A DNA stretch of 64,000 nucleotides from Patescibacteria group bacterium (lineage in GTDB: Bacteria > Patescibacteriota > Minisyncoccia > Phycocordibacterales > CSBR16-119). A model generated the notes under the pieces. That model searched no databases. It saw only the letters and a program-made list of their open reading frames with translations, and was not told the DNA's origin. Shown here piece by piece: positions 2,436-55,217 of this stretch. Position 1 is the first letter of the stretch. Every line of letters starts with the position of its first letter. The stretch is from assembly GCA_030917865.1 (NCBI GenBank), contig JAUPTX010000002.1:40-64039 (forward strand). The letters are read 5' to 3'. Position numbers and translations under genes: made by a program.

Positions 2436-2470
2436 TAAATAGCGGCGCCCGCAGGGCGCCGCTATTTAAT
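2436..2470. terminator. bidirectional intrinsic terminator between tRNA-Ala (+) and ddl (-)
   Basis: Near-perfect palindrome ATAGCGGCGCCC-GCAG-GGCGCCGCTAT flanked by A/T runs on both sides. Confidence 0.6.
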
Positions 2471-3477
2471 TATCTATCTAATTTTCTTCTTATTAAATGG
2501 TCTATCCAGACATGATCTGGGCAACCAACTTCAGACATCATAGAAGGTAATATCTCCCCTTCGCCAAGTATCGGCTGACTGTCGACTTCGATAACATATA
2601 TTCCGCCCTTTGGAGAAATTATCAGGTTCGCTGTTGAATAATCCTTTAAATCAAACTCTTTGTGTAAAGTTTTAATTATGTCGTTTATAGCATCTTTATG
2701 CTCTTCTAATTTATTGTTTAAAATTTTAAGAGAATGCTTTTTGTTAAACCTCGTTTCATAGTCGAGTATTTTTCCAGGCTTTTGAATTTCAAAAGGAGGT
2801 AAAACATATTCTTCCTCACCACGAAGCCCATTTATTATTCCAGAAACGACCTCTGTTCCTTCTATGTATTCTTCGACAATTATTTCATCAAATCTGTCAG
2901 CCAAATCATTTAAAAGATAAATTAATTCTGAAAAAGTCGTAACCAGATACGTAAAAGTAGAAGCAGATCCAAGTATCGGTTTTACAACCCAAGGCGGATT
3001 TATTTTCTTGAAAATCTCCATAGCCTTTTTACGCATAAATTCAATCTGTTCTTTTTCATCCTCCATCTTAAGAAGACCTTGTAAAATAAAATATCTAGGC
3101 GTTTTAAGTCCAATATCTTCTAGTCTTTGTTTCTTTTTTTGCTTATTAGCTGTCATTGAAGAAGAAAAAGGATCAGAGCCAACATATGGAACACCGAGCT
3201 CGTCTAAGAAATCTTGGAGCTTTCCATCTTCACCATAAACACCGTACAAGGTATTAAAAACAACATCAACATATTTTTTTAAATCCCTTGGCTCCATTGG
3301 TAGACCTTTTTTGTGCCAAGTTCCATCTTTTGTAATCAAAATATCAACAGCCTCATATCTGTCTTTTGGAATGTGATTTAAAATATATGATCCAGCCGCA
3401 AGTGACATGTAGTATTCAGGAGTCACTCCGCCACGTATAACACCAACACGAATTTTAGAATTAGAATCCATATCCAT
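2470..3477 (-). CDS. ddl: D-alanine--D-alanine ligase-like ATP-grasp enzyme
   Basis: N-terminal KIRVGVIRGG...E..VSL motif, central ATP-grasp block (VVKP, EIIVEEYIEGTEVVSGII) and C-terminal EVDSQPILGEGEILPSMM segment resembling the Ddl C-terminal domain. Confidence 0.65.
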   Translation of the reverse strand: MDMDSNSKIRVGVIRGGVTPEYYMSLAAGSYILNHIPKDRYEAVDILITKDGTWHKKGLPMEPRDLKKYVDVVFNTLYGVYGEDGKLQDFLDELGVPYVGSDPFSSSMTANKQKKKQRLEDIGLKTPRYFILQGLLKMEDEKEQIEFMRKKAMEIFKKINPPWVVKPILGSASTFTYLVTTFSELIYLLNDLADRFDEIIVEEYIEGTEVVSGIINGLRGEEEYVLPPFEIQKPGKILDYETRFNKKHSLKILNNKLEEHKDAINDIIKTLHKEFDLKDYSTANLIISPKGGIYVIEVDSQPILGEGEILPSMMSEVGCPDHVWIDHLIRRKLDR

Positions 3478-15986: not shown

Positions 15987-16161
15987 CCCCTTGAAAAAAA
16001 CCTCATTTTGTAGTAAAGTATCGTTTGTCTGTAAGTAATCCGCCTTGGTCAAAAACCCCGGCAGATGCCCTCCCTAGTCAGGAGCGGTCAAACGAAAGCA
16101 ATTAAAATAACAAAGCTTTTGTGCAGATATAGAGCCTAAATTACAGGGTAAATTACAAATT

Positions 16162-16833
16162 ATGTCAAAACAAAATCTACAAGAAATGATTGACGCTGGT
16201 GTACACTTCGGATACACAAAAACTCGAAGACACCCAAGCGCAAAACCTTTTATTTTCGATACGAAAAACAAGGTTGATCTAATCGATATAAACAAAACAG
16301 AAGAAATGCTTAAAAAAGCTTCTGAGTTTATGGCGTCTCTAGGAAAAGACGGAAAGAAAGTTCTTTTCGTTGGAACAAAAGCTGAAGCTAAAGATTTAGT
16401 TAAAAATTCAGCAGATAAACTAAGAATGCCTTTTGTTATAAGCCGATGGATTGGTGGAACATTAACAAACTTTGGAGAAATCAAAAGAAGAGTTGATGTT
16501 TTAACAGATCTTAAAGAAAGAAAAGATAAAGGTTTACTTGAAAAATACACAAAGAAAGAACAATCTGATTTCGGAAGACAAATCAACAAAATGGAAGGAT
16601 ACTTTGGAGGCCTTGTTGGTATGGAAAGAAAGCCAGACGCTATCGTGATCATCGATGTTAAAAAAGAAATAAACGCTTTCAGAGAAGCAAAACAACTAAA
16701 AATCCCAGTTATCTCAATCTCAAGCACAGACTGTGATATCAGTGAAGTTGATTATCCAATATTGGCTAACGACGCAGCTATCTCAAGTCTAAAACTTCTG
16801 CTAGACAAACTAACAGAAAGTTATTCTGCCTAA
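16162..16833 (+). CDS. rpsB: 30S ribosomal protein S2
   Basis: MIDAGVHFGYTKTRRHPSAKPFIF...LFVGTK...ISRWIGGTLTNF. Confidence 0.95.
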   Translation: MSKQNLQEMIDAGVHFGYTKTRRHPSAKPFIFDTKNKVDLIDINKTEEMLKKASEFMASLGKDGKKVLFVGTKAEAKDLVKNSADKLRMPFVISRWIGGTLTNFGEIKRRVDVLTDLKERKDKGLLEKYTKKEQSDFGRQINKMEGYFGGLVGMERKPDAIVIIDVKKEINAFREAKQLKIPVISISSTDCDISEVDYPILANDAAISSLKLLLDKLTESYSA

Positions 16834-16841
16834 CTTTAAAT

Positions 16842-16871
16842 ACCGTCTTTCGTGTTAAAATGAAAGACGGT
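16842..16871 (+). terminator. 10-bp perfect hairpin after rpsB (ACCGTCTTTC-loop-GAAAGACGGT); attenuator or terminator before tsf
   Basis: Seen directly, followed by a T-rich stretch. Encloses the ORF-track start codon at 16860. Confidence 0.45.
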
Positions 16872-16907
16872 ATTTCAAACATTAAAAATAGTTCATTTAT
16901 TTTATTT

Positions 16908-17675
16908 ATGACAACAGAGTTAATTAAACAATTACGAGACGAGACTGGTATTTCTGTAATGCAATGTAAAAAAGCGTTAGAAGAAGCTGGTGGAGATGTA
17001 GAAAAAGCGAGAATCATCCTTAAAAAGAAAAGCGGTGTCGCTGCTTCTAAAAAAGCTGACAGAGAGCTCGCTTCTGGATTTATTGCGTCAGCAGCAGGAG
17101 AAGGAAAAGTTGCTATCGTTACTCTTTTCTGCGAAACAGACTTCGTTGCAAAAAATGAAGACTTTATAAAGGTTGCAAAATCTATCGCAGAAAAAGCTAT
17201 AACTGAAGGAGAATCTGCAAAAGAATCTTCTTCTGATACGGTAAACGAATTGATTCAAAAAATCGGAGAAAATATCAAAATTGGTGATATTAAAATCGCA
17301 GAAGGAAATGCTGGATCTTATGTTCACAATGGACAAATCGCAGCCGTAGTAAACCTAAAAGAAAAGAACGATGAACTGGCTCGCGATATCGCAATGCACA
17401 TAACAGCAATGCGACCAGCTTTCATGAACGAATCTGACATCGACGAAACAGCAAAAGAAAATGCTAAATCTATTTTCAGCAAAGAAGTAGAAGAACAAGC
17501 AAAAGACAAACCTGAAGAGATGAAGACTCAAATCTTAAACGGCAAACTTGCATCTTTCTTTAAAGATCAAGTTTTAATGAAGCAATCTTTCGTAAAAGAT
17601 CCTTCTAAAACAATAGAACAGCTTGTTAAAGAAGCAAATAACGAAATAGTGTCTTATACACTAGAACAAATATAG
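16908..17675 (+). CDS. tsf: elongation factor Ts (start moved to the internal ATG at 16908; the ORF track begins at 16860)
   Basis: MTTELIKQLRDETGISVMQCKKALEEAGGDVEKA matches the conserved EF-Ts N-terminus. The 16860 ATG lies inside the rpsB hairpin. Confidence 0.9.
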   Translation: MTTELIKQLRDETGISVMQCKKALEEAGGDVEKARIILKKKSGVAASKKADRELASGFIASAAGEGKVAIVTLFCETDFVAKNEDFIKVAKSIAEKAITEGESAKESSSDTVNELIQKIGENIKIGDIKIAEGNAGSYVHNGQIAAVVNLKEKNDELARDIAMHITAMRPAFMNESDIDETAKENAKSIFSKEVEEQAKDKPEEMKTQILNGKLASFFKDQVLMKQSFVKDPSKTIEQLVKEANNEIVSYTLEQI

Positions 17676-17678
17676 TTT

Positions 17679-18110
17679 ATGCAAACTCTTCTTATCATAT
17701 TTGGAATATCTTTAATTGGAATTCTGGTAATGATATACCGCGGTGTTTCTCATGTTCGAAGAAATGGCTTTGAACATGAGGAAGACGGTGTCCACCCTGT
17801 TGCGAAAAACCTAAATTCCATACTAAAAAAGATTGGAATAATTTTCACTTACATAATGCATGTGATAGCGGCATTTCTTTCAAGGATCTGGGCCAGGATA
17901 ACCCACAAGATTTCAAATATCTACAAGAAGATTGTAAACAAGCTAGAAGACTACTTCAAACACAAACACGAGAACAATATAAACAAAGATATAAAAACAC
18001 AGTCAATACTTCTAACCACAATAAAGGCCTATAAAAAAGAAATAAAGAAACTAAACCAAAAAATAGAGCCTGACCAGATGCGACCAAAAGACAATACAAA
18101 AGTGGAATAA
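17679..18110 (+). CDS. hypothetical membrane protein (143 aa) immediately downstream of tsf
   Basis: Two hydrophobic segments (LLIIFGISLIGILVMIY and IGIIFTYIMHVIAAFL), then a lysine-rich tail. Starts 4 nt after the tsf stop. Confidence 0.5.
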   Translation: MQTLLIIFGISLIGILVMIYRGVSHVRRNGFEHEEDGVHPVAKNLNSILKKIGIIFTYIMHVIAAFLSRIWARITHKISNIYKKIVNKLEDYFKHKHENNINKDIKTQSILLTTIKAYKKEIKKLNQKIEPDQMRPKDNTKVE

Positions 18111-34583: not shown

Positions 34584-36512
34584 ATGAAAAAGAAAAAAGA
34601 AAACAAGTTTCGAAAAGAACAAACTGGCGTTATTAGAATCTCTCAAAAAGGTATCGGCTTTATGAAAAGCGATACAAAAGAAGGAATCGAAATACCTCAA
34701 AATCTATTAGGAGTTGCGCTTCACGGAGACACCGTAAAAGTTGCCATAAACTCTAAAAGAAAAGGCGGACCAGAAATAGGAGAAGTTGTAGAAATAGTCA
34801 AAAGAGCTAAAAAGGGCTTTTCTGGAAAAATAGTAAAAGAAGATGGTGAATACTTTTTAATAGCGAGCGACCCTCGTATGCCTTTTAATATTTTAATTAC
34901 AGAAAAAGACAGAAACGGTGCGGAGGTTGGAGACAAGGTTTTCGTAAAGCTTAAAAAATGGACTTCGAGAAAACAAACGCCGTCTGGGGTCGTGGACAGG
35001 GTTTTAGGTAAACACGGAGAACACAACGCAGAAATGGAAGGAATAATTTTAGAAAAAGGATTCGAAAGCTCGTTTCCAGAAAAAGTAGAACAAGAAGCAA
35101 TATATATAAAAGAGAAAAATTACGAAGATGAAATCGCAAAAAGAAGAGACTTGCGATCTGTTCCGACTTTTACTATAGACCCATTCGATGCAAAAGATTT
35201 CGACGACGCGCTATCTTTCGTAAAACTTCCTAACGGAAACTTTGAAGTCGGCGTGCACATCGCAGACGTTGCATTTTTTGTCCGTCCGGGAACAGCTCTC
35301 GACAAAGAAGCTCTCGAACGCGCAACTTCTGTTTATCTAGTAGATCGAACAATCCCGATGCTTCCAGAAGTTCTATCAAATGATTTATGTAGTTTAAACC
35401 CGAACGAAGACAAATTCGCTTTTTCTTCGATTTTTGAATTAGACGAAAAAGGAAATGTTCACAAAGAATGGTTTGGCAGAACTGTTATAAATTCAGACAA
35501 AAGATTTACATACGAAGAAGCACAAGAAGTCTTAGACAAAGGCGAAGGTATTTTCTACGAAGAATTAAATATTTTAAATAACATTGCAAAAGAACTAACA
35601 AAAGAGCGAATAAAAGCCGGCGCTCTTTTGATGGAACAAGACGAAGTTAAATTTATACTAGACGAAAACGGCGTACCGGTAGACGTTTATACAAAAAGAC
35701 GCGGAGACACAAACAAACTAATAGAAGAGTTCATGCTTTTGGCCAACAGACGCGTGGCAGAATTTGGAAGTTTCGATAAAAACAAAAAAGAAAGACTTTT
35801 TATATACCGAATCCACCAAGACCCAGACAAAGACAAAATGAAAGATCTAGCAAACTATCTTAAAATTTTAGGATATAATTTGCCGATTCATAAAGGATAC
35901 GTCGACCCAAAAGAATTAAACAAACTTCTTTTAGCTCTCGAAGGCAAAAACGAAAAAGATACAGTGCAAAGCGTCGTTGTCAGATCAATGCAAAAAGCGA
36001 TCTATTCAACCAAAAACAGATCTGGTCACTATGGTCTCGCATTTAAATACTACACTCATTTCACTTCCCCAATCAGAAGATATCCTGACATAATCGCCCA
36101 CAGAATGCTCGATATATATTTATCCGGAGGAAATATAGGCAAAGATAAACAAAACTATTATGAAGAAATGGCGACACATTCGTCCGAAAGAGAACGCGAC
36201 GCGCAAGAAGCAGAAAGAGGAAGTATAAAATTCAAACAAATAGAATACATGGCAAAAAGACTGGGACAAAAATTCACAGGTGTTGTCACTGGTATAACAG
36301 AATGGGGTATCTACATATCTGAGGAAAAGTCTCATGCAGAAGGTATGATAAAATTAAGAAGTCTTGAAACTGATTACTACACATACGATGAGAAAAATTT
36401 AATGGTTGTCGGACAAAAGACCAAACACATAATCAGAATCGGCGACAAAGTTTCAATAAAAGTCACAAAAGCGGACCCAGAAGAAGGAGTTATAGATTAC
36501 GAATTTGCATAA
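34584..36512 (+). CDS. rnr: ribonuclease R / RNase II-family 3'-5' exoribonuclease
   Basis: RNB catalytic motif (DPFDAKDFDDALS), a cold-shock-like N-terminal region and a C-terminal S1 domain (GVVTGITEWGIYISEE). Confidence 0.9.
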   Translation: MKKKKENKFRKEQTGVIRISQKGIGFMKSDTKEGIEIPQNLLGVALHGDTVKVAINSKRKGGPEIGEVVEIVKRAKKGFSGKIVKEDGEYFLIASDPRMPFNILITEKDRNGAEVGDKVFVKLKKWTSRKQTPSGVVDRVLGKHGEHNAEMEGIILEKGFESSFPEKVEQEAIYIKEKNYEDEIAKRRDLRSVPTFTIDPFDAKDFDDALSFVKLPNGNFEVGVHIADVAFFVRPGTALDKEALERATSVYLVDRTIPMLPEVLSNDLCSLNPNEDKFAFSSIFELDEKGNVHKEWFGRTVINSDKRFTYEEAQEVLDKGEGIFYEELNILNNIAKELTKERIKAGALLMEQDEVKFILDENGVPVDVYTKRRGDTNKLIEEFMLLANRRVAEFGSFDKNKKERLFIYRIHQDPDKDKMKDLANYLKILGYNLPIHKGYVDPKELNKLLLALEGKNEKDTVQSVVVRSMQKAIYSTKNRSGHYGLAFKYYTHFTSPIRRYPDIIAHRMLDIYLSGGNIGKDKQNYYEEMATHSSERERDAQEAERGSIKFKQIEYMAKRLGQKFTGVVTGITEWGIYISEEKSHAEGMIKLRSLETDYYTYDEKNLMVVGQKTKHIIRIGDKVSIKVTKADPEEGVIDYEFA

Positions 36513-36520
36513 AATTCTAA

Positions 36521-39124
36521 ATGTCAAAAAAGATTTTTAAAAACATACTTTGGAGTATTGTACCTATTGGATTAGGTATTGTTTTGACTGCATTTATCTG
36601 GAACAGCGCCGAACAAGCTATCACAAAAGAAAATGCGCCAAGAGAAAGATCTTCTTTTATAACCAAAATTAAAAATATAAATATTAAAATCGGCGAGAAA
36701 AATATTTCTCAAACTGTTTTTAAATTCGACAACACAATCTACCCACCAACTCCTGTTTACATGATTAAAAACCCAGACAAAGAACTCGACATAGGTGCAG
36801 TTTCTTTTGTTGTTGGAGATGTAAATACTGGAGAAATAATCTTAGAAAAAAACAGCGAAGCTGTATTCCCTATCGCATCGGTAACTAAACTAATGACAGC
36901 GCTAGTGTCACTAGAAACATTACCTCAAGAAGAAAAAACAAAAGTTTCAAATCGTGCGGCAAATATCGAAAGTTCTCGTGGAGACCTACGAACAGGTGAA
37001 AATGTTTTAATATCTGATTTACTCTACCCTCTTCTTTTAGTTTCCAGCAACAACGCGGCTGAAGTTCTAGCAGAAACAAAAGGTCGCCCGAGCTTCATGC
37101 AAAACATGAACGAATTTGCAGACAAAATCGGGATGAGCAAAACAAACTTCGATGACCCGAGTGGACTTTCAAGTAAAAACACCTCCACAGCCAAAGATCT
37201 TTTTAAATTAACAACATATCTTGAAAACAATCACAGACTTGTTTTTGACATCTCTACTCTTACAGAATACACAGCGATAGGCAAAGTCTGGAGAAATATA
37301 AATAGATTTTCAAACAATGACAACTTTATAGGAGGAAAAACAGGTTTTACAAGCCAAGCAAAAAGAACGGGCGTAGGTATTTTCTCTGTCTCTTTTCCAG
37401 AATATGAAGACAGACATATAGGTATAATTCTTCTTAGAACAGACGACAGAACTAAAGACATTTATACAATACTTAATTATCTGAGAGAAAATGTCGCTTA
37501 TGGATACGAAGAAGAAATCAAAAACCAGATAGCTGGAGCAAAAACAACAGACGGAGAAGTTTTAGGAGAATCCGACAGCTTATCTTTTTTAAGATTAAAG
37601 AAAAAAGAAAATGACTCGATAATAAACAGAGTTTCTGTTGTAGAGCCAAACAATTGCCCAAAACCAACAGAAGGGTTTCAAGATCTTTCTTTATTTAATG
37701 CATCTAGAGAAAACAAACTACCAACGAACTACATCCCAAAAGACCTGTCTCCGATTAAAAACATAATAGAGACCAAAGGTCGAGATATTTGCCTTACAGA
37801 AAAAGCAAAAGATGCACTCGCAAAACTAAACGAAAACGCTAAAAACGAAGGATTGGAAATTGTCGCCACTTCTGCCTTTCGAAGCGAAGAAACACAAAAA
37901 TGGATTCACGATGAATGGCACAGAAAAAACCAAGTGATAAACGGTGAAGAAGCTATTGCAAAACCAGGACACTCTGAACACCAACTCGGCACAACAGTCG
38001 ACTTCACTGCGCCGGGCGTCGGATATGATTCAGCGGATAGGAATTTTCACTTAACACCAGAATACGAATGGCTTTTAAACAATGCACACAAATACGGCTT
38101 TGTTTTAAGCTATCCAAATAAAAAACAAACTGGATATATTTTTGAACCTTGGCATTGGCGATATGTCGGAATTGAAAACTCATATCATATAAAACTTGCA
38201 GACATAACAATTCAAGAATTTCTTTCTGGCCAAAAACAAGAGTTTAAACCAGAAGAAAAGCAAGAAGTCACCATCTCATTTTTAGGAGACATAATGATGG
38301 ATCGCGGAGTCAAAACTTCTGTGTATAAAAACTACGGAGGCGACTTTAATTCCCTATTTAAAAATTTAGGAGAACTTAAAGATGATGATATAACTTTCGC
38401 AAACCTTGAAGGCCCTGTTTCTGATGTCGGGAAAAATGTCGGCAGCAAATACTCTTTTCGCATGGAAGAAAAAACTTTAGACGCACTTAAAAATGCTTCT
38501 TTTGAAATAGTATCGTTCGCAAACAACCACGTCGGAGACTGGAGTGTAGCCGCTTTTGACGACACCTTAGGAGGATTAAATAGAGTAGGAATAAAATACA
38601 CTGGCGCAGGTAAAAATCTAGCTGACGCAAGCGAGGTCAGAGTGATAGAAGAAAACGGAGTGAAAGTAGGATTTCTAGCTTTCACAGATGTCGGACCAAA
38701 TTGGATGGCCGCTGGAGAAAATAAGTCAGGGATACTTTTAGCAAGCGACCCAAAAAGACTTGAATATATAAAAACTGCAAAAGAAAAAGTAGATGTGCTT
38801 GTCGTATCGTACCACTGGGGCGAAGAATACGTAGCGTTTAATGCTCGTCAAAAAAGTTTAGCTGAAAGCTCAATCGATGCTGGTGCTGATATCATCGCAG
38901 GTCATCACCCACACGTAAGACAAGATACGCTTACATATAAAGATGGGCTGATTATGTATTCACTTGGAAACGCAATCTTTGATCAATACTTCTCAGAAGA
39001 AACAATGAAAGGAGGACTCGTAAATGTCACTGTCACAAAAGAAGGCATAAAAGATTTTGAAGAAAAAGTTTTTACGCTGGATAAGACTTATGTGCCAGGT
39101 GTTCCGGAAAAAAATAAAAATTAA
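36521..39124 (+). CDS. tri-domain exported cell-wall enzyme: S11 D-Ala-D-Ala carboxypeptidase (SxxK/SxN/KTG) + M15B VanY-like D,D-carboxypeptidase + CapA/PGA_cap-like metallophosphatase domain
   Basis: N-terminal TM helix. ASVTKLM (SxxK), SSNN (SxN), GGKTGFT (KTG). Then SAFRSEETQ...GHSEHQLGTTVDF...EPWHWRYVG (M15B signature). Then GDIMMDRGV, ANLEGP, FANNHVGDW, HWGEEY, GHHPHV (CapA-type). Confidence 0.8.
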   Translation: MSKKIFKNILWSIVPIGLGIVLTAFIWNSAEQAITKENAPRERSSFITKIKNINIKIGEKNISQTVFKFDNTIYPPTPVYMIKNPDKELDIGAVSFVVGDVNTGEIILEKNSEAVFPIASVTKLMTALVSLETLPQEEKTKVSNRAANIESSRGDLRTGENVLISDLLYPLLLVSSNNAAEVLAETKGRPSFMQNMNEFADKIGMSKTNFDDPSGLSSKNTSTAKDLFKLTTYLENNHRLVFDISTLTEYTAIGKVWRNINRFSNNDNFIGGKTGFTSQAKRTGVGIFSVSFPEYEDRHIGIILLRTDDRTKDIYTILNYLRENVAYGYEEEIKNQIAGAKTTDGEVLGESDSLSFLRLKKKENDSIINRVSVVEPNNCPKPTEGFQDLSLFNASRENKLPTNYIPKDLSPIKNIIETKGRDICLTEKAKDALAKLNENAKNEGLEIVATSAFRSEETQKWIHDEWHRKNQVINGEEAIAKPGHSEHQLGTTVDFTAPGVGYDSADRNFHLTPEYEWLLNNAHKYGFVLSYPNKKQTGYIFEPWHWRYVGIENSYHIKLADITIQEFLSGQKQEFKPEEKQEVTISFLGDIMMDRGVKTSVYKNYGGDFNSLFKNLGELKDDDITFANLEGPVSDVGKNVGSKYSFRMEEKTLDALKNASFEIVSFANNHVGDWSVAAFDDTLGGLNRVGIKYTGAGKNLADASEVRVIEENGVKVGFLAFTDVGPNWMAAGENKSGILLASDPKRLEYIKTAKEKVDVLVVSYHWGEEYVAFNARQKSLAESSIDAGADIIAGHHPHVRQDTLTYKDGLIMYSLGNAIFDQYFSEETMKGGLVNVTVTKEGIKDFEEKVFTLDKTYVPGVPEKNKN

Positions 39125-39164: not shown

Positions 39165-41390
39165 TTACTTCGCATACCCTTCCGCCTCGGCAAACTTTAT
39201 CGAAAGGAGTTTTGACGCCCCGTCCCCACCGATTGTCACTCCGTAGATCAAATCTGCTCGCGACATCGTCTCTCTGTTATGAGTCACAACGATAAGCTCA
39301 GAATATTTTGAGAGCCTCTCAAGCATATCTCCATATCTTTTTGAGTTAGCTTCGTCGAGTGCCGCATCTGTTTCGTCGAGCACGAGGAACGGTGGCGGGT
39401 TTACCTGACTCATCGCGAAAAGTAGCGCGATAGATGTCAGAGACCTCTCCCCACCAGATAACATCGCCAAATCTTTTACTTTCTTTTGAGGAAGAGACAC
39501 ATTTATGTCTATCCCCTGCTCGAAACTTTTATCTTCTTCAACCACATCAGTCTCATCCATATTCTCGTCTAGCTTTTTTGGCTTTTCTACTACAATAGAA
39601 AGAAATGCCCCTCCGCCACCAAACATCAATTTAAAGAATTCTTCAAACCTCTCGTTTATCTTCGTAAGTCCTGTTTTAAATTCCGTGTCTAGCGTTACCT
39701 TTAGTTCGTCAATTAAAGTTTCTAGACTTTTTATGCTTCCTTCCAAATCCGCTAACTCTTTGATCAAGAAATTATCTCTTTCTGCGGTTTCTTCGTATTC
39801 TTTCAGAACATCAAACCCTCCGCCTGTACCGATATCTTCTAGTTTAATTTTCAATCTCTCGATTTGTCTTCGCAGGTCTTCTTGTTCTTCGTCTCTGAAA
39901 TCAATATTATCGTCACCTTTTTCAAATCCTAAAATATTCTGACCAACCAACACAACAGCCTCTTTCATATTTTCTTCAAACAAAGTTTTTCGTCGCAAGA
40001 AAATTGTATTTTTGTTCTCTATAACTTCCAAAGAAGACGCGACCCTGTTTCGTTCGTTTTCAAGAGTAAATTTTTCTTCGCCTGCTTTGTATCTATCTTC
40101 TTTGTTTTTTGAAATCTCATTTCGAATCAAAGAAACTTTTTCACTCGATTCTTCGATACTCTTGTCTAGCTCTGATATTTTAGAAAGTAATCCTTTTTTG
40201 CTTTCCAAAAGATTATCCAAATCTTCTCTTGAAACTTCGCCTGTTAATTTATACTTTTGTCTAAAACTACTTAAATCGTCTTTTATTTTCTTCAAAGAGG
40301 CTCCGGCAGAAGTTAAATCGCTAGACGACAAAGCGCTGTCGATATCGTCGTGTATTGAATCTATAAAAGAATTAAACTCACTGTTTTTTATTGTTATAGA
40401 CGAATCACCTCTTGAAACTTTCGCTTCTTCAAGCTCCACCAAACCTTCTATTTTACCGAGCGATCTTGAAAGATTTTCTTTTTCAAATCTAAAAGCTCTG
40501 ACTTTTTCTAAAATAGAATCTATCTCAGCGGTTTTTTGGATTTCAAAAGAATTATCATCTTCTATTTTAATATTTGAAATTTTTTGATTAAGAGAATCCA
40601 GTAAATCTTTTAGTCTAGACTTTTCTTTTTTTATAAAAGATTCTTCGTGACCTAAATAGGCATGCTCTCTTTTAAAATACAAAAGATAAAGCGTTGTCAG
40701 TTCCCCACGGAGTTCTTCGCCTTTTTGGATTTTTTCAACTTGCTTTTTAAGGTATCGCAAATGCGGAGCAAGTTCTCTTCTTATACTTTCTATTTCTTTG
40801 ATATTTTCTTTTGTTTTTGAAAGTTTTTTCTCGCTTTCTTTTAATCTGTATTGATATATCTTAAGACCAAGAGCGTCTTCTATCATCCCTCTTCGCTCTT
40901 TTGTGCTAGCTGTCAAAACCCTATCTGCATGACCTTGGGAAATAATATGGTGACCCGAAGAACCAATATTCACAGAAGCTAAAAGCTCAACAATATCACG
41001 AAGTCTGACTTCTGTGTTGTTTATATAGTAACTATTATTTCCGTCCGCAAAAACCTCTCTTTTGATTGAAATTTCGTCGAAGTCTACATTTATAGGAGAA
41101 TCACCACTTGGTAATTTAAAAACTCTATTTTTGTTATCAAAATTTATCGAGACATACGCTCTGTTTTGTTTTTGAACACCAGAAGATCCTTTGAAGATCA
41201 AATCTTTCCCTGATTTCCCTCTTAAAGATTTCATTGACTGCTCACCCAAAACGAAACGAAAAGATTCTACAACGTTTGATTTTCCTGATCCGTTTGGGCC
41301 AACAACACAAGTTAACGGGTGCGTAAAATCCAGCCGGCTCTTTTTGCCGAAAGACTTAAAACCGTTTAGTTCTATAGCTTTTAAATGCAT
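39165..41390 (-). CDS. smc: SMC-family chromosome-segregation ATPase, short form (741 aa)
   Basis: N-terminus LNGFKSFGKK...VVGPNGSGKSNVVESFRFVLGEQS, long coiled coils, and C-terminal LSGGERSLTSIALLFAM...LVLDETDAALD. Much shorter than the canonical roughly 1180-aa SMC. Confidence 0.7.
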   Translation of the reverse strand: MHLKAIELNGFKSFGKKSRLDFTHPLTCVVGPNGSGKSNVVESFRFVLGEQSMKSLRGKSGKDLIFKGSSGVQKQNRAYVSINFDNKNRVFKLPSGDSPINVDFDEISIKREVFADGNNSYYINNTEVRLRDIVELLASVNIGSSGHHIISQGHADRVLTASTKERRGMIEDALGLKIYQYRLKESEKKLSKTKENIKEIESIRRELAPHLRYLKKQVEKIQKGEELRGELTTLYLLYFKREHAYLGHEESFIKKEKSRLKDLLDSLNQKISNIKIEDDNSFEIQKTAEIDSILEKVRAFRFEKENLSRSLGKIEGLVELEEAKVSRGDSSITIKNSEFNSFIDSIHDDIDSALSSSDLTSAGASLKKIKDDLSSFRQKYKLTGEVSREDLDNLLESKKGLLSKISELDKSIEESSEKVSLIRNEISKNKEDRYKAGEEKFTLENERNRVASSLEVIENKNTIFLRRKTLFEENMKEAVVLVGQNILGFEKGDDNIDFRDEEQEDLRRQIERLKIKLEDIGTGGGFDVLKEYEETAERDNFLIKELADLEGSIKSLETLIDELKVTLDTEFKTGLTKINERFEEFFKLMFGGGGAFLSIVVEKPKKLDENMDETDVVEEDKSFEQGIDINVSLPQKKVKDLAMLSGGERSLTSIALLFAMSQVNPPPFLVLDETDAALDEANSKRYGDMLERLSKYSELIVVTHNRETMSRADLIYGVTIGGDGASKLLSIKFAEAEGYAK

Positions 41391-42349: not shown

Positions 42350-43240
42350 TTATTTTGTAATATACTCAACCGATTGTGCTAAAAGTGGCAAGATATCGTC
42401 GTATGTTTTGATATCTTCAAGCTCTGCGAGCGTAAACCACTTTCCGCCATCAAGACCGCCGTTTGTTTTAACGTTCATTTCCACAAATGGCGACTTAACC
42501 AGGTAATAACTTACCTGTTTACGAATTTTACCTTTTTCTGGGTGAGATGCAACATATTCGTTTTCCCCGAGAAGTTTTACAATTTCCGCATCTAAATCTG
42601 TCTTTTCTTTAATCTCTCTGATAGCGCCCTCTTCTGAAGTTTCGCCGTCTTCTACTCCGCCTTTTGCGAGAGTCCAATATCCAAAAACATCGTGGACAAG
42701 ACCGAAATAGAACTGACCGTCTTTTTCAGAAACGATAACACCCCCTGCCTTTTTCTCGACAGGCATGTCTTCTAGTTTAACTTCTTTTACTTTTTTCTTT
42801 CCACTGTCTTCTTTTCCTGGTTCACCCATCTCTTTATACACAGCGCCGAGTACTCCGTTTACGAATTTGCCGGATTTTTCACCACCGAAAGTTTTCGCGA
42901 GTTCGATCGCTTCGTTAATAGCAACTTTTGGAGGAACTTCGTTTTTGTCTGCGAACAAAAGTTCAGCCAAACCAATACGAAGAACATTTCTATCAACCAT
43001 AGAAATTTTCTCAAGAGGCCACTCTGGTGCAGCGCGAGTGATTATTTCATCAATAGATTCTTGTTTATCGAGAACGATTTTTAGCAAGGTCTCCATGAAA
43101 GAGTCCACAGAAAGACCAGGTCCAAATTCAGAAGTGTTATGAAGAAGTTCTTCTGATAGGTCAGAAGACTTGCGACCGTTAAAGTCCCATTCAAAAAGTG
43201 TTTGTAAAACTATAGAACGTGCTAAATGTCTGTTTGCCAT
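42350..43240 (-). CDS. nusB: transcription antitermination factor NusB fused to a C-terminal NUDIX hydrolase domain
   Basis: Residues 1 to about 140 are NusB-like (ARSIVLQTLFEWDF...VDRNVLRIGLAELLF...FVNGVLGAV). A lysine-rich linker follows, then a Nudix fold with the box GGVEDGETSEEGAIREIKEKTDLD. Confidence 0.8.
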   Translation of the reverse strand: MANRHLARSIVLQTLFEWDFNGRKSSDLSEELLHNTSEFGPGLSVDSFMETLLKIVLDKQESIDEIITRAAPEWPLEKISMVDRNVLRIGLAELLFADKNEVPPKVAINEAIELAKTFGGEKSGKFVNGVLGAVYKEMGEPGKEDSGKKKVKEVKLEDMPVEKKAGGVIVSEKDGQFYFGLVHDVFGYWTLAKGGVEDGETSEEGAIREIKEKTDLDAEIVKLLGENEYVASHPEKGKIRKQVSYYLVKSPFVEMNVKTNGGLDGGKWFTLAELEDIKTYDDILPLLAQSVEYITK

Positions 43241-45346: not shown

Positions 45347-45408
45347 ATATAGGGCGCCTTCGGCGCCCTATATTTTATTTAAAAGCCCTACCAACTGGTA
45401 GGGCTTTT
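45347..45408. terminator. two adjacent GC hairpin terminators (TATAGGGCGCC-TTCG-GGCGCCCTATA + T-run for thrS; AAAAGCCCTACCA-ACTG-GTAGGGCTTTT, bidirectional, for the murD fragment)
   Basis: Seen directly at 45348-45380 and 45381-45408. Confidence 0.7.
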
Positions 45409-45954
45409 GCACGCAAGACGCGCCACAGAACTTCTGAACTCCCGAGATCTATGCTCATAGTTCGTAAAAAGGTCAAAACTTGCACACGCTGGAGAAAGCA
45501 GAACTGTATACCCGGGCTGAGCAAGCTGCATTGCAGACATAACAGCTTCGTCCATTAAAAGACAGTCCGAGGTAACGGGAACGTCTTGAGAGAAAAAATT
45601 CCTCAGACGATCGTTTACCCTGCCCAAGGCAACGATTGCTTTTACCTTCTTTTCGACAGCAGACAGAAGCACCGAATAGTTATTTCCCTTATCGACGCCG
45701 CCAGCAATCCAAATTATTGGACCACCAGTTTCTTCTAGTGCCCACCAAGCAGAATTCACATTGGTTGAAAAAGAATCATCTACAAAACTGATACCTTCGA
45801 ATAGCCCAACTTTTAGCAGACGATAGTCGAGGACCGGACGAAAACCTTCTCGTATTTCGTCTTTAGTTGGAGAAATTCTACCCTCAATACCAACACCCTC
45901 TCTCTTGTGCCCAGCAATGTTTCCGTTTACTGCGATCTCTATTATGTGTCTCAT
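45388..45954 (-). pseudogene. murD: GC-rich gene fragment matching only the C-terminal domain of UDP-N-acetylmuramoylalanine--D-glutamate ligase (MurD); truncated remnant or captured fragment
   Basis: VDDSFSTNVNSAWWALEE...IIWIAGGVDKGNNYSVL...LSPACASFDLFTNYEHRSREF aligns to the MurD C-terminal domain. The ATP-binding and N-terminal domains are absent (188 aa versus about 440). GC is visibly higher than in neighbouring genes. Confidence 0.55.
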
Positions 45955-52067: not shown

Positions 52068-55000
52068 CTATTTTACTTCTGAATCTGTTATCACATAGGG
52101 CTTACATTTTTGTAATCTTATTGTAGCACTACCCTCGTTATTGTTTTGATTTGCATCTGATTGATCGAGATAATGCAGGACGGCAATATTAGTCCTATTT
52201 CCACAAACCTTTGGTGAATTAGGAACTTTCATTGTTATAAATATATGCGTTTGCTGATTAGGAAAAAGTGTTGGAATGTAAAACATATGAACATTGTTGT
52301 TGTATGCGTTCGTGTTAGGTGTTTGATGAGAGTGATATATCAATCCTGGTGGAATTATTTCTTTAACTTGAACATTTGTAGCAGTATTATCTCCTAAATT
52401 TTTTACATCTATCCTCCAAGTTATATATCTATCAAATAAAGAGAGTGATGAATCAACCAACTCTTTTGCAACCCTTATATCTACTTTTCCATCAGTATTA
52501 ACTGGTGGAGTGTCTCCAACCAAAGCAACACCGAAATCTAAGTTTTCTACTGTTTCTCCGTCTTCTAGCGTGACTGTATACATATGGTTGTAATTTATAA
52601 ATGGATCAGTACTTATTCCCGGCTGTGTCACCGATTGATACAAATTTTCACCTATTAAACCGACGTAATACTCTCCGTCTGGAAGGTTTGTGAATTCGTA
52701 TCTACCGAGGTTTGGAATGTCTTCCGTAGTTGTGGTTTGGATTGGCATGTTGTTACCAGCTTGGAAAAGACCCACCGGAATACCTGCAAGGCGTAGCTCG
52801 GTCGATTGTTGAGAGCCGTTTTGGTTTTGGTCTTGATAAATATATCCATGAATAGAAGAAGTTCCTGCTTTTTTTAAACTTACACCATCAATATAAAACA
52901 TAGAGCTTACAAAAATATTACTCGTGTCAGAAATAAATTCGGGATCAAAAGCAATATAATTATACTCTATTCCATTATCTGGAATAGAAAAGTCTAAAAA
53001 GTATTCTTGCCATAAACCTATATTAGGATGTGAATATGAGTTAAGGTTTACAGGTACAGAAAATAACAAATCTGTCTGATTTGACACAAAAGATTCTTGA
53101 AAAGAAGGACTTGATAAAGGCTCTGCTGAAATATAAATTTTTTGATTGACATTAGATATCCCACCACCTCTTAGATATACACCGCGCCAAACCAATCGAT
53201 AACTACCAGGAAGAATGGGCTCTAAAGTCTTTGTTTGAATACTTTCAACATAAGTAGGCAAGCCAATATAATTACCAGGAACAAAAGAATTGGTCCCGCC
53301 AATATATCTGTTATTTGGAATACCATTATATGTTTCTTGAGGCCCAGAATTAGTCCAAGGAAAATCAAAATTTAAATCTCTAGTATATATATCAGTAGAT
53401 GGTCTAAAGTTACACCAACCAAGAAAATCACTTGGGCATAAAAAAGATAACTGACCTGCTCCATTTCCAGCACCCGGCAAATCTCCGATTTCAAAATTTC
53501 CATTACAAATATATTCATCGGGGTCATTAATACTTTCACAAGATGCTGCAGTCTTTATTAAAGCAGTAAATGAAAATCTGTTTGTATTTGAATTCTTGTT
53601 TGTATACCTAAAAACTCTAGTAGAAGTATCGATGGTTGGAATAATGTTTACAGACACAGAACCTGATGAATTTGATTGAATAGATCCAGTACAATTTGAT
53701 CCTGAGAAATACTGTATTACATCTCCAGGATCTGAAGCAACAACCTCAAAAATGTTAATCTTAAGCTGATTAACAGACCCCCCGGGATTAATATCATTAT
53801 CTAGTAAATTAACACACACTGGCTCTGTTCCATTAAACTGAATAAAATCATTCGTTGCTACCGGACTCGGCACTTCACACCCAGCCAATCCCTCCACCAT
53901 ATATCCCAAATGACACAAAACTTCTAGTTCATGTTCGTGGATATCTCTTTCTGTATTTGTTCCAATTGATGGATGCATTACATAAGTCTGTCCTGGGGCG
54001 CGATTCATGTCAAAGTGCGAAAGAGACGAGCCCTGTTGCCAGCTTGTTGGACTGTAAACAGGGCGAACGCCATCCGGAGCAGCGTTTAAAATATTTTTAA
54101 CACCACGGTAAACAACCTGGTTTGTTACAAACCAAGGAGAAGGGGCTCCGACTGGGACGTTTAATAGGTTTGTGACAGCGGTGATAAATCTGTTTTGAAG
54201 ACTTTCATCTTTGTGTGTGTAGTAGTCAAATGTTCCATGATTATAGGAAATATTGGTTTCATTTATAACCGAAGGCAAAAGACCTCTTAAACCAAGTGCA
54301 TGCATCATCTCATGCCACATAACGGTATAGAAGTCATAAGTATTCGCGTTAAGACTTGAATCAACGCTCCAGTTAATACCATTAAAATTTATTATTATGA
54401 AAGCGTCAAAAGACCCTTGTGCTGGGGTTGGGTTTTGTCTTGAGATGATATGTTTGTGAAGAGAGCCGTTGTCAGGGTTAGCAGAGTAATAGCCCAAATA
54501 TGAAGACGCCCCAGCTAGAGCTCCTGGTGGTAAGGGCTGGTCACTTCTTGTAAAAAGAATATCTGAGGTTACGGTAGTCGTATCTATCATTAGAATCTCT
54601 GACATATCTTCTAGAACCTGACAAGCTTCTTCTCTTCTACCATCTCCATATGTAGGGTCATCAAAACCAACGTTAGTGTTTAGTGCCACATCTTCAAAGT
54701 AGGCTTTGAAGTATCCCGTGACAGATGTATTTGCTCTACAGTTATATACTCCTGGATTACTTGTATCTTCATCGTATGCAACTACTTTTTTTGTTTTTAG
54801 GGAATCCAAGAAAGATTGTTTTCTTGGTTCTTCTTTTTTCATGAAAGCGTTTTCTTTTACCGGGTAACCCCAGGCGTCACGAATTGGTCCAAAGTCAACA
54901 TACTCTAATCCATATTCTTGTTTTAGGATAGCTCTTGCTTTTTCTTCGTCAAAAGGAAGTATCGGTAGGTCAAAGTTTGCCTCTTTTTTGTTTACTGGAA

Positions 55001-55217
55001 GCTTTGAGTATTGATATTGGAAATTAAATACTCCTGGAAATTCTTTTGAAGGAGAGATGTTATAGATGTTTTCACTTATTTGCCCAATCAAAGAAGCTTG
55101 GGCCGAATTTTCTATCTGAAGAATACTTGGAATAACAAGCCCTTGCATAGTAAAAAAAGTAAGAAACAAAATTCCCACAGAAATAATAAAATTTATTGAA
55201 GGTTTATATTTTTTCAT
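52068..55217 (-). CDS. large secreted/surface protein (1049 aa): signal peptide, HExxH zinc-metalloprotease-like region, SdrD-B/CnaB-type domain and C-terminal DUF11 repeat domain
   Basis: N-terminal hydrophobic signal. YTVMWHEMMHALGL (HExxH). A second HEHELE motif. GYIYQDQNQNGSQQSTE...GRYEFTNLPDGEYYV (SdrD B-like). VDIRVAKE...WRIDVKNLGDNTATNVQVKEIIPPGL (DUF11-like). Confidence 0.7.
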   Translation of the reverse strand: MKKYKPSINFIISVGILFLTFFTMQGLVIPSILQIENSAQASLIGQISENIYNISPSKEFPGVFNFQYQYSKLPVNKKEANFDLPILPFDEEKARAILKQEYGLEYVDFGPIRDAWGYPVKENAFMKKEEPRKQSFLDSLKTKKVVAYDEDTSNPGVYNCRANTSVTGYFKAYFEDVALNTNVGFDDPTYGDGRREEACQVLEDMSEILMIDTTTVTSDILFTRSDQPLPPGALAGASSYLGYYSANPDNGSLHKHIISRQNPTPAQGSFDAFIIINFNGINWSVDSSLNANTYDFYTVMWHEMMHALGLRGLLPSVINETNISYNHGTFDYYTHKDESLQNRFITAVTNLLNVPVGAPSPWFVTNQVVYRGVKNILNAAPDGVRPVYSPTSWQQGSSLSHFDMNRAPGQTYVMHPSIGTNTERDIHEHELEVLCHLGYMVEGLAGCEVPSPVATNDFIQFNGTEPVCVNLLDNDINPGGSVNQLKINIFEVVASDPGDVIQYFSGSNCTGSIQSNSSGSVSVNIIPTIDTSTRVFRYTNKNSNTNRFSFTALIKTAASCESINDPDEYICNGNFEIGDLPGAGNGAGQLSFLCPSDFLGWCNFRPSTDIYTRDLNFDFPWTNSGPQETYNGIPNNRYIGGTNSFVPGNYIGLPTYVESIQTKTLEPILPGSYRLVWRGVYLRGGGISNVNQKIYISAEPLSSPSFQESFVSNQTDLLFSVPVNLNSYSHPNIGLWQEYFLDFSIPDNGIEYNYIAFDPEFISDTSNIFVSSMFYIDGVSLKKAGTSSIHGYIYQDQNQNGSQQSTELRLAGIPVGLFQAGNNMPIQTTTTEDIPNLGRYEFTNLPDGEYYVGLIGENLYQSVTQPGISTDPFINYNHMYTVTLEDGETVENLDFGVALVGDTPPVNTDGKVDIRVAKELVDSSLSLFDRYITWRIDVKNLGDNTATNVQVKEIIPPGLIYHSHQTPNTNAYNNNVHMFYIPTLFPNQQTHIFITMKVPNSPKVCGNRTNIAVLHYLDQSDANQNNNEGSATIRLQKCKPYVITDSEVK

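Follow-up and report, generated by a model that had tools for sequence, protein, structure and literature searches.

The 64-kb window of Patescibacteria DNA analysed here (by the window we mean that whole stretch) encodes, at 36521..39124 on the + strand, an 867-amino-acid (aa) protein with an ATG start in which three enzyme domains follow one another: a Peptidase S11 domain, an M15B (VanY/LdcB-type) zinc carboxypeptidase domain, and a PGA_cap (CapA/PgsA-type) domain. We think it probable that this protein is a membrane-anchored, outward-facing housekeeping enzyme of peptidoglycan stem-peptide processing in a Patescibacteria (Paceibacteria-type) bacterium whose genome is tiny, with three active modules on each chain. 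All three domains come from known families, and public databases already contain the architecture under the automatic labels 'CapA family protein' or 'cap protein'; the novelty lies in the combination and in its implication for CapA-type domains.

Domains, active sites, and membrane anchor

Pfam places three non-overlapping domains on the protein, each far above its curated cut-off: Peptidase_S11 (PF00768; aa 87-283, E 1e-35, 123.6 bits against 27.6), VanY (PF02557; aa 425-550, E 3e-35, 121.4 bits against 25), and PGA_cap (PF09587; aa 584-822, E 5e-66, 223.3 bits against 27, model positions 1-255 of 255). The initial annotation had read a three-domain fusion and a set of catalytic motifs from this single open reading frame (ORF), and both are confirmed, every motif that it quoted being present at the positions given below. 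For the analysis of conservation, the domains were cut from the query and its 120 best homologues and then aligned, and the catalytic residues proved invariant in all 119 S11, all 84 M15B, and all 106 PGA_cap domains. None of the three regions lacks its catalytic residues, and the third has the expected metallophosphatase fold. With active sites that are intact and invariant, the three domains are predicted to be CATALYTICALLY competent. A mis-assembled chimera is ruled out: two independent public metagenome contigs carry the identical 867-aa protein, and its domain order recurs in 24 further proteins of 65-92% identity.

The only hydrophobic segment detected by a hydropathy scan lies at the N-terminus (~aa 9-30, 36545..36610, + strand), and 116 of the 121 family members have one. 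An AlphaFold2 (AF2) model has a helix at aa 2-35 and, over aa 31-76 (36611-36748, + strand), a predicted local distance difference test score (pLDDT) below 50, which we take as a disordered linker. From the single segment and the modelled helix and linker, we conclude that the protein is anchored in the membrane by its N-terminus and faces outward. The earlier description of the protein as exported is supported in this sense and not in that of a cleaved signal peptide; the description as a dedicated envelope-remodelling enzyme is a fair one for three catalytic domains on one extracytoplasmic polypeptide.

The S11 domain, of the low-molecular-weight, class C penicillin-binding protein (PBP) type, spans aa 79-341 (36755..37543, + strand), as delimited by Pfam, PDB matches, and the AF2 model, in which its pLDDT exceeds 90. 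Its motifs SVTK (120-123), SNN (176-178), and KTG (273-275) have the correct order and spacing and supply the catalytic residues S120 (36878-36880), K123, S176-N-N178, and K273-T-G275; S120, K123, S176, K273, and G275 are the invariant positions. The second motif reads S-x-D rather than the canonical S-x-N in 100 of the 119 family members, and S-N-N in the clade of the window. By family membership, the domain is expected to be a DD-peptidase. Its relatives in the PDB are DacB (3mfd) and the endopeptidases 6muq and 6azi. There is no Pfam match to a PBP5_C domain after S11, and the AF2 fold stops at ~aa 341, where a disordered linker begins. The NCBIfam models for DacA, DacC, and DacD give 37-42 bits, where the cut-offs are 610-765, and the NCBIfam model that matches best is that of the PBP7-type DD-endopeptidase (101.8 bits against 294).

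The M15B domain, a member of the LAS superfamily, spans aa 386-575 (37676..38245, + strand; Pfam VanY and alignment to LdcB). It contains SEHQLG (485-490) followed by D494, and EPWHW (542-546). The pattern H-x(3-6)-D ... H, the catalytic Glu (ExxH), and the Arg for the substrate carboxylate are all present as the zinc ligands H487, D494, and H545, the catalytic E542, and R454, and all five residues are invariant. The zinc ligands align with H185, D192, and H244 of BsLdcB, and E542 and R454 with its Glu and Arg; the roles of the residues in the LdcB active site have been described (PMC4087270).

The PGA_cap domain spans aa 579-860 (38255..39100, + strand; Pfam, AF2, and Foldseek). Its AF2 model has a calcineurin-like fold with a pLDDT of 95.8, in agreement with the initial annotation of a CapA-type domain with a metallophosphatase fold. 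The motifs GDIMMD (589-594), NNHVGD (668-673), and GHHPHV (794-799) are present, and D590, E630, N669, H670, D673, H765, H796, and H798 are invariant. Alignment with CapA of Bacillus anthracis plasmid pXO2 gives 37.5% identity (E 4e-40) with all active-site motifs in common (GDIMMxR, NxExP, ANNHxxD, HWGEEY, GHHPHV, and YSLGNxxFDQ), and on sequence the domain is classed as a canonical CapA. Both CapA/PgsA and the fusion protein are membrane-anchored and face outward, but CapA/PgsA is a stand-alone protein whereas here the domain forms the C-terminal part of a peptidoglycan peptidase.

Architectural variants in a conserved gene slot

A protein search recovered 259 relatives at E <= 1e-10, and those with an organism name are all from Patescibacteria, Paceibacterota, Minisyncoccia, or Nomurabacteria. 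In a scan of GTDB species representatives, matches spanning S11 to PGA_cap belong to genomes titled as Patescibacteria lineages or to unclassified metagenome-assembled genomes labelled only 'bacterium'; in genomes with titles from other phyla, mostly Burkholderiales, the match is restricted to the S11 part. One such S11-only match, on a contig titled Crocinitomicaceae (L022, JBLIKX010000005.1), has 40% identity, like the S11-only hits from Patescibacteria, and this contig may be mis-binned. The architecture had been called unusual; it is so by comparison with model bacteria, but not among Patescibacteria, where the 259 relatives have it or close variants of it.

A census of the query and its 120 best homologues, confirmed by Pfam, found S11-PGA_cap-M15B in 58 proteins (13 of them, of ~1190 aa, with a duplicated PGA_cap), S11-PGA_cap in 28, the order of the window, S11-M15B-PGA_cap, in 25 (65-92% identity to the window protein), YkuD-S11-PGA_cap in eight, and S11-M15B in two that are probably truncated. 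In all five architectural variants, the looked-up loci have rnr (RNase R) directly 5' of the gene with a gap of 1-9 nt, within a shared block that runs trmD-KH-S16, then rnr and the gene, then SMC-rnc-nusB/NUDIX-L32-(thrS)-gyrB. As they occupy the same slot after rnr, the variants are positional orthologues, and the idea that the domain-order variants are unrelated paralogues is ruled out. S11 and PGA_cap form the constant core, around which an LD-type module, either M15B or YkuD, has been gained, shifted, or lost, and the fusion gene is a syntenic housekeeping (core) gene of Patescibacteria. In the window, rnr lies at 34584..36512 (+ strand), its stop codon 8 nt from the start codon of the fusion gene, and the two are probably co-transcribed; a promoter and terminator scan gave no more sites than shuffled sequence.

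The long orthologues with two PGA_cap domains (~1170-1205 aa; P0025-P0029, P0035, P0041, P0047, P0052, P0065, P0079, P0080, and P0083) are represented in our alignments of the second copy by P0026 only. That copy is a divergent paralogue, which keeps GD, NLEG, NNHxxD, and H-G-G-x-E and has G-S-G-P-H in place of GHHPH, the form of the motif seen in MslH (see below); the first copy of P0026 has Arg at the position of His670.

Substrate and chemistry of the three modules

The window also encodes Ddl, MreB, and MreC, from which we infer that the organism builds its own wall with D-Ala-D-Ala termini, the substrate of the fused peptidases. The initial annotation assigned two DD-carboxypeptidase activities to the protein, and it is here that our reading departs from it. 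The M15B domain aligns best with LdcB (BsLdcB 4ox3, 107 bits; BaLdcB 4mph, 99 bits), ahead of VanY (68), SpLdcB (58), and VanXY (57); it shares 36-39% of its residues with LdcB and 31% with VanY, and the loop that follows the zinc-binding Asp, at 47-49 aa, is of LdcB length (48 aa; VanY has 42). The evidence favours LdcB, the best full-length matches being proven LD-carboxypeptidases. In eight orthologues, a YkuD domain is found where others have M15B, and its catalytic H...SGGC(I)R motif is kept in six; the YkuD (L,D-transpeptidase) fold carries out L,D chemistry on tetrapeptides, including the LD-carboxypeptidase activity of Pgp2 (PMC3961634). Since M15B is closest to LdcB and is absent, moved, or has YkuD in its stead in positional orthologues, trimming in sequence, first from penta- to tetrapeptide and then to tripeptide, is probably a better description than two redundant DD-carboxypeptidases.

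We suggest the following order of events, the first two steps of which follow from family membership. The S11 serine DD-peptidase would remove D-Ala5 or cut 4-3 cross-links, leaving a tetrapeptide that ends in D-Ala4. The LdcB-like zinc domain would then remove D-Ala4, a putative LD-carboxypeptidase activity that would yield a tripeptide. This would probably be the same trimming as that performed by DacA together with LdcB/DacB in B. subtilis and S. pneumoniae, which belong to the same two enzyme families (PMC4087270); the fusion protein has each of the LdcB zinc ligands as well as the Glu and the Arg. There, however, the two enzymes are separate proteins, whereas here they are joined on one chain that also carries a CapA-type domain, and unlike DacA the S11 domain lacks the PBP5 C-terminal domain and resembles PBP7. 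A second comparison is the stepwise conversion of tetra- to tri- to dipeptide by Csd6/Pgp2 (a YkuD-fold LD-carboxypeptidase) and then Csd4/Pgp1 (a DL-carboxypeptidase) in Helicobacter and Campylobacter (PMC3961634). The orthologues that carry YkuD where others carry M15B resemble the Csd6/Pgp2 step, but Csd6/Pgp2 and Csd4/Pgp1 are separate proteins of different families, and a third step by PGA_cap directed at gamma-D-Glu is hypothetical here.

We suggest that the target of the CapA-type domain would be this wall peptide too, rather than a capsule of poly-gamma-glutamate. This domain alone was searched against 1.84 billion representative proteins, which gave 25,724 clusters at E <= 1e-3. Of the 143 closest new representatives, 78 are stand-alone proteins; in the rest, PGA_cap is fused to S11, M15B, YkuD, Polysacc_deac_1, Amidase_2, Peptidase_M23, GGACT, and some Memo-like or beta-propeller domains, one protein being S11-PGA_cap-CE4. 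If the Memo-like and beta-propeller domains are set aside, each partner that was identified has peptidoglycan as its target, except GGACT, which acts on gamma-glutamyl bonds. In the YkuD variant, moreover, the next gene encodes Polysacc_deac_1 (a CE4 deacetylase). Guilt by association with these peptidoglycan enzymes, and with the CE4 gene beside the YkuD variant, suggests that the substrate of PGA_cap is in the wall and not in a capsule, and we regard action of the domain on peptidoglycan as likely. As to the individual fusions, that with Memo-like (PF01875) recurs (P0205, P0211, P0214, P0220, P0228, P0237, and P0246), and the order Memo-PGA_cap-YkuD is seen once; GGACT (gamma-glutamyl cyclotransferase) is seen once (P0215), and a beta-propeller twice (P0125 and P0204).

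The closest solved structure to the PGA_cap domain is MslH (PDB 8gq9), which epimerises the C-terminal Trp of a lasso peptide and is the top Foldseek match (E 3e-20, template modelling score (TM) 0.82) in spite of an identity of only 17%. The next match has E 3e-9 and TMq 0.57, and MslH is followed by YmdB-type phosphoesterases (2cv9, 1t70), 5'-nucleotidases, and purple acid phosphatases. The epimerisation of a peptide C-terminal residue by MslH is Ca-dependent and relies on two His/Asp pairs, H88/D91 and H295/D11, with E44, N87, H259, and H261 as Ca ligands (PMC10406935). Seven of these eight functional residues, including both His/Asp pairs, are conserved in PGA_cap: Asn87, His88, Asp91, His259, and His295 correspond by direct alignment to N669, H670, D673, H765, and H798, and Asp11 and Glu44 correspond, by motif position only, to D590 and E630. 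For the NCBIfam MslH equivalog model, the score is 50 bits and the cut-off 700. MslH is a cytoplasmic protein of 437 aa that has a partner, MslB1, and belongs to a gene cluster for a ribosomally synthesised and post-translationally modified peptide, whereas the fusion protein is predicted to be extracytoplasmic. The discoverers of MslH proposed that CapA is an epimerase acting on poly-gamma-glutamate (PMC8179263). In the open-access literature, we found no paper that describes an S11/M15B/PGA_cap fusion or that links PGA_cap or MslH-like enzymes to peptidoglycan.

By analogy, the MslH mechanism would need an N-acylated residue whose free alpha-carboxylate binds the metal. The C-terminal Trp of MslA and every unit of poly-gamma-glutamate would fit, as would two positions in the wall: the gamma-linked D-Glu at position 2 of the stem peptide, which is locally identical to one poly-gamma-glutamate unit, and the C-terminal residue newly exposed by the fused peptidases. 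One or other of these residues would be the likely target of the third step. The chemistry that we prefer for it is metal-dependent epimerisation through two His/Asp pairs, as in MslH, with hydrolysis at the gamma-D-Glu bond as second choice. That PGA_cap is specifically an epimerase is nevertheless doubtful, and we put forward only tentatively the specific proposal that the CapA-type domain is an extracytoplasmic stem-peptide epimerase, which would invert either the C-terminal residue left by the peptidases or the gamma-linked Glu at position 2.

Several observations weigh against the proposed processing enzyme or parts of it. S11 may act as an endopeptidase instead of a carboxypeptidase, although the product would be the tetrapeptide either way. 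The full-length AF2 model has a predicted TM score of 0.42, with unreliable inter-domain geometry, and in it the M15B domain has a pLDDT below 50 because only ~26 of the aligned sequences included M15B. S. pneumoniae LdcB scores below VanY on the M15B domain; the NCBIfam scores (vanXY 82.5, LdcB 73.5, and vanY_BG 72 bits) are all far under their cut-offs and do not separate LdcB from VanY or VanXY, and on sequence the domain may have LD or DD specificity. In the PGA_cap domain, the Ca ligand His261 of MslH is replaced by Gly767, which is itself invariant (106/106), and an additional invariant His, H796, creates an HxH (H796-P-H798) that is kept here and in CapA, as in the dinuclear phosphodiesterase YmdB (PMC10406935). 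Because of these two differences from MslH, a two-metal hydrolase site is equally compatible with the residues. The Memo-like and beta-propeller partners are without a known peptidoglycan role. Finally, the absence of capB and capC, discussed below, covers the window and up to 10 kb on either side of the gene in the relatives (less at contig ends), not whole genomes.

The HxH raises the question of whether the third domain is a true metallophosphoesterase that cuts phosphodiester-linked wall polymers (teichoic-acid-like) or lipid-carrier pyrophosphates. The calcineurin-like fold, the phosphoesterases and phosphatases that follow MslH in the structural search, and the combination of HxH with the H670/D673 pair, as in YmdB (PMC10406935), all point this way. 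We nonetheless suggest that this is unlikely. The match to MslH is far better (E 3e-20 and TM 0.82, against E ~1e-9 and TM 0.57), motif I is without the His of DxH, the Asn that follows the Glu in YmdB (Asn40) is Gly631 here, and the fusion partners indicate peptide stems and glycan, not phosphodiesters. The literature searched contains no CapA/PGA_cap phosphoesterase, and the systems with assigned roles, MslH and CapA/PgsA, both act on peptide substrates.

Less probable still, in our judgement, is a link to a capsule, in which two redundant DD-carboxypeptidases of different mechanism (S11 and VanY-type) would share a chain with a CapA domain for the synthesis or anchoring of a poly-gamma-glutamate capsule. 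Pfam does name both peptidase families 'D-alanyl-D-alanine carboxypeptidase', NCBIfam does put vanXY slightly over LdcB, and the similarity to CapA described above is to a genuine capsule protein. However, in pXO2, capA lies inside a capsule operon with the order capB-capC-capA-capD-capE, whereas the fusion gene lies in a housekeeping block, and neither the 64-kb window nor the five related loci (L003-L007) yielded capB, capC, capD, or capE. In B. anthracis, moreover, the capsule is anchored by CapD, not by CapA. With proven LD-carboxypeptidases as best full-length matches of M15B, a positional orthologue series in which M15B is dispensable or has YkuD in its place, and peptidoglycan enzymes rather than capsule enzymes as partners of the PGA_cap subfamily, neither the pair of DD-carboxypeptidases nor the capsule association of the initial annotation is upheld.

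It is similarly improbable that the same chemistry is aimed at a host wall, with an episymbiont displaying the enzyme in order to reshape the peptidoglycan of its partner cell or to draw D-Ala and peptides from it: Patescibacteria are commonly episymbionts with reduced biosynthesis, the protein is exposed at the surface, the window encodes other large surface proteins (DUF11/SdrD_B), and surface proteins with peptidoglycan-binding domains have been discussed (PMC10936435), but the housekeeping block around the gene is strictly conserved, the gene is probably co-transcribed with rnr, its product has a short N-terminal anchor without reach or adhesion domains, the organism makes a D-Ala-D-Ala wall of its own and has MreB and MreC, and the Paceibacteria of that study parasitise archaea, which lack the substrate.

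Other genes of the window and wider meaning

Downstream of the fusion gene, 39165-41390 (- strand) encodes an SMC-family protein of 741 aa in which the N- and C-terminal ATPase halves are intact, and a short form (740-747 aa) is conserved at the same position in relatives. As a typical bacterial SMC has ~1180 aa, the coiled coil of the window protein must be much shorter. At 42350-43240 (- strand), NusB and NUDIX are joined in one 296-aa chain, a fusion kept in all the related loci examined. The ORF of 188 aa at 45388-45954 (- strand) has only a weak precomputed Mur_ligase_C match and no Pfam match at E <= 1e-5, and may represent either a remnant or a small domain that stands alone. A 1049-aa protein (52068-55217, - strand) has C-terminal SdrD_B and DUF11 repeats after ~780 aa of N-terminal sequence without assignment and probably serves at the surface or in adhesion. 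The neighbour of ddl (2470-3477) is another, unrelated phosphoesterase of the calcineurin-like type (Pfam Metallophos; 1148-2269, - strand), with an N-terminal extension of 150 aa. GC and AT skew are both positive only at 16001-18000 and at 34-38 kb, the places of the + strand genes rpsB-tsf (16162-17675) and of rnr with the fusion gene; in the rest of the window, the - strand carries almost every gene.

The role of CapA/PgsA has been debated for decades, the protein having been regarded as a transporter, as a polymer-release factor, and, most recently, as an epimerase. The natural fusions described here set a canonical CapA domain beside enzymes of known substrate, the peptidoglycan stem peptide, and at the loci checked the carriers show no sign of a polyglutamate pathway; they thus offer a concrete, soluble test system for CapA chemistry. 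The fusions also correct the automatic annotation 'capsule biosynthesis protein' in public databases and point to a step of wall modification outside the textbook pathway that is apparently core to a very large uncultivated phylum. If the CapA-type domain is indeed a stem-peptide epimerase, Patescibacteria would edit the stereochemistry of their wall after its assembly, and PGA_cap/CapA proteins in general would be epimerases for N-acylated residues with a free alpha-carboxylate, with poly-gamma-glutamate and peptidoglycan as substrates.

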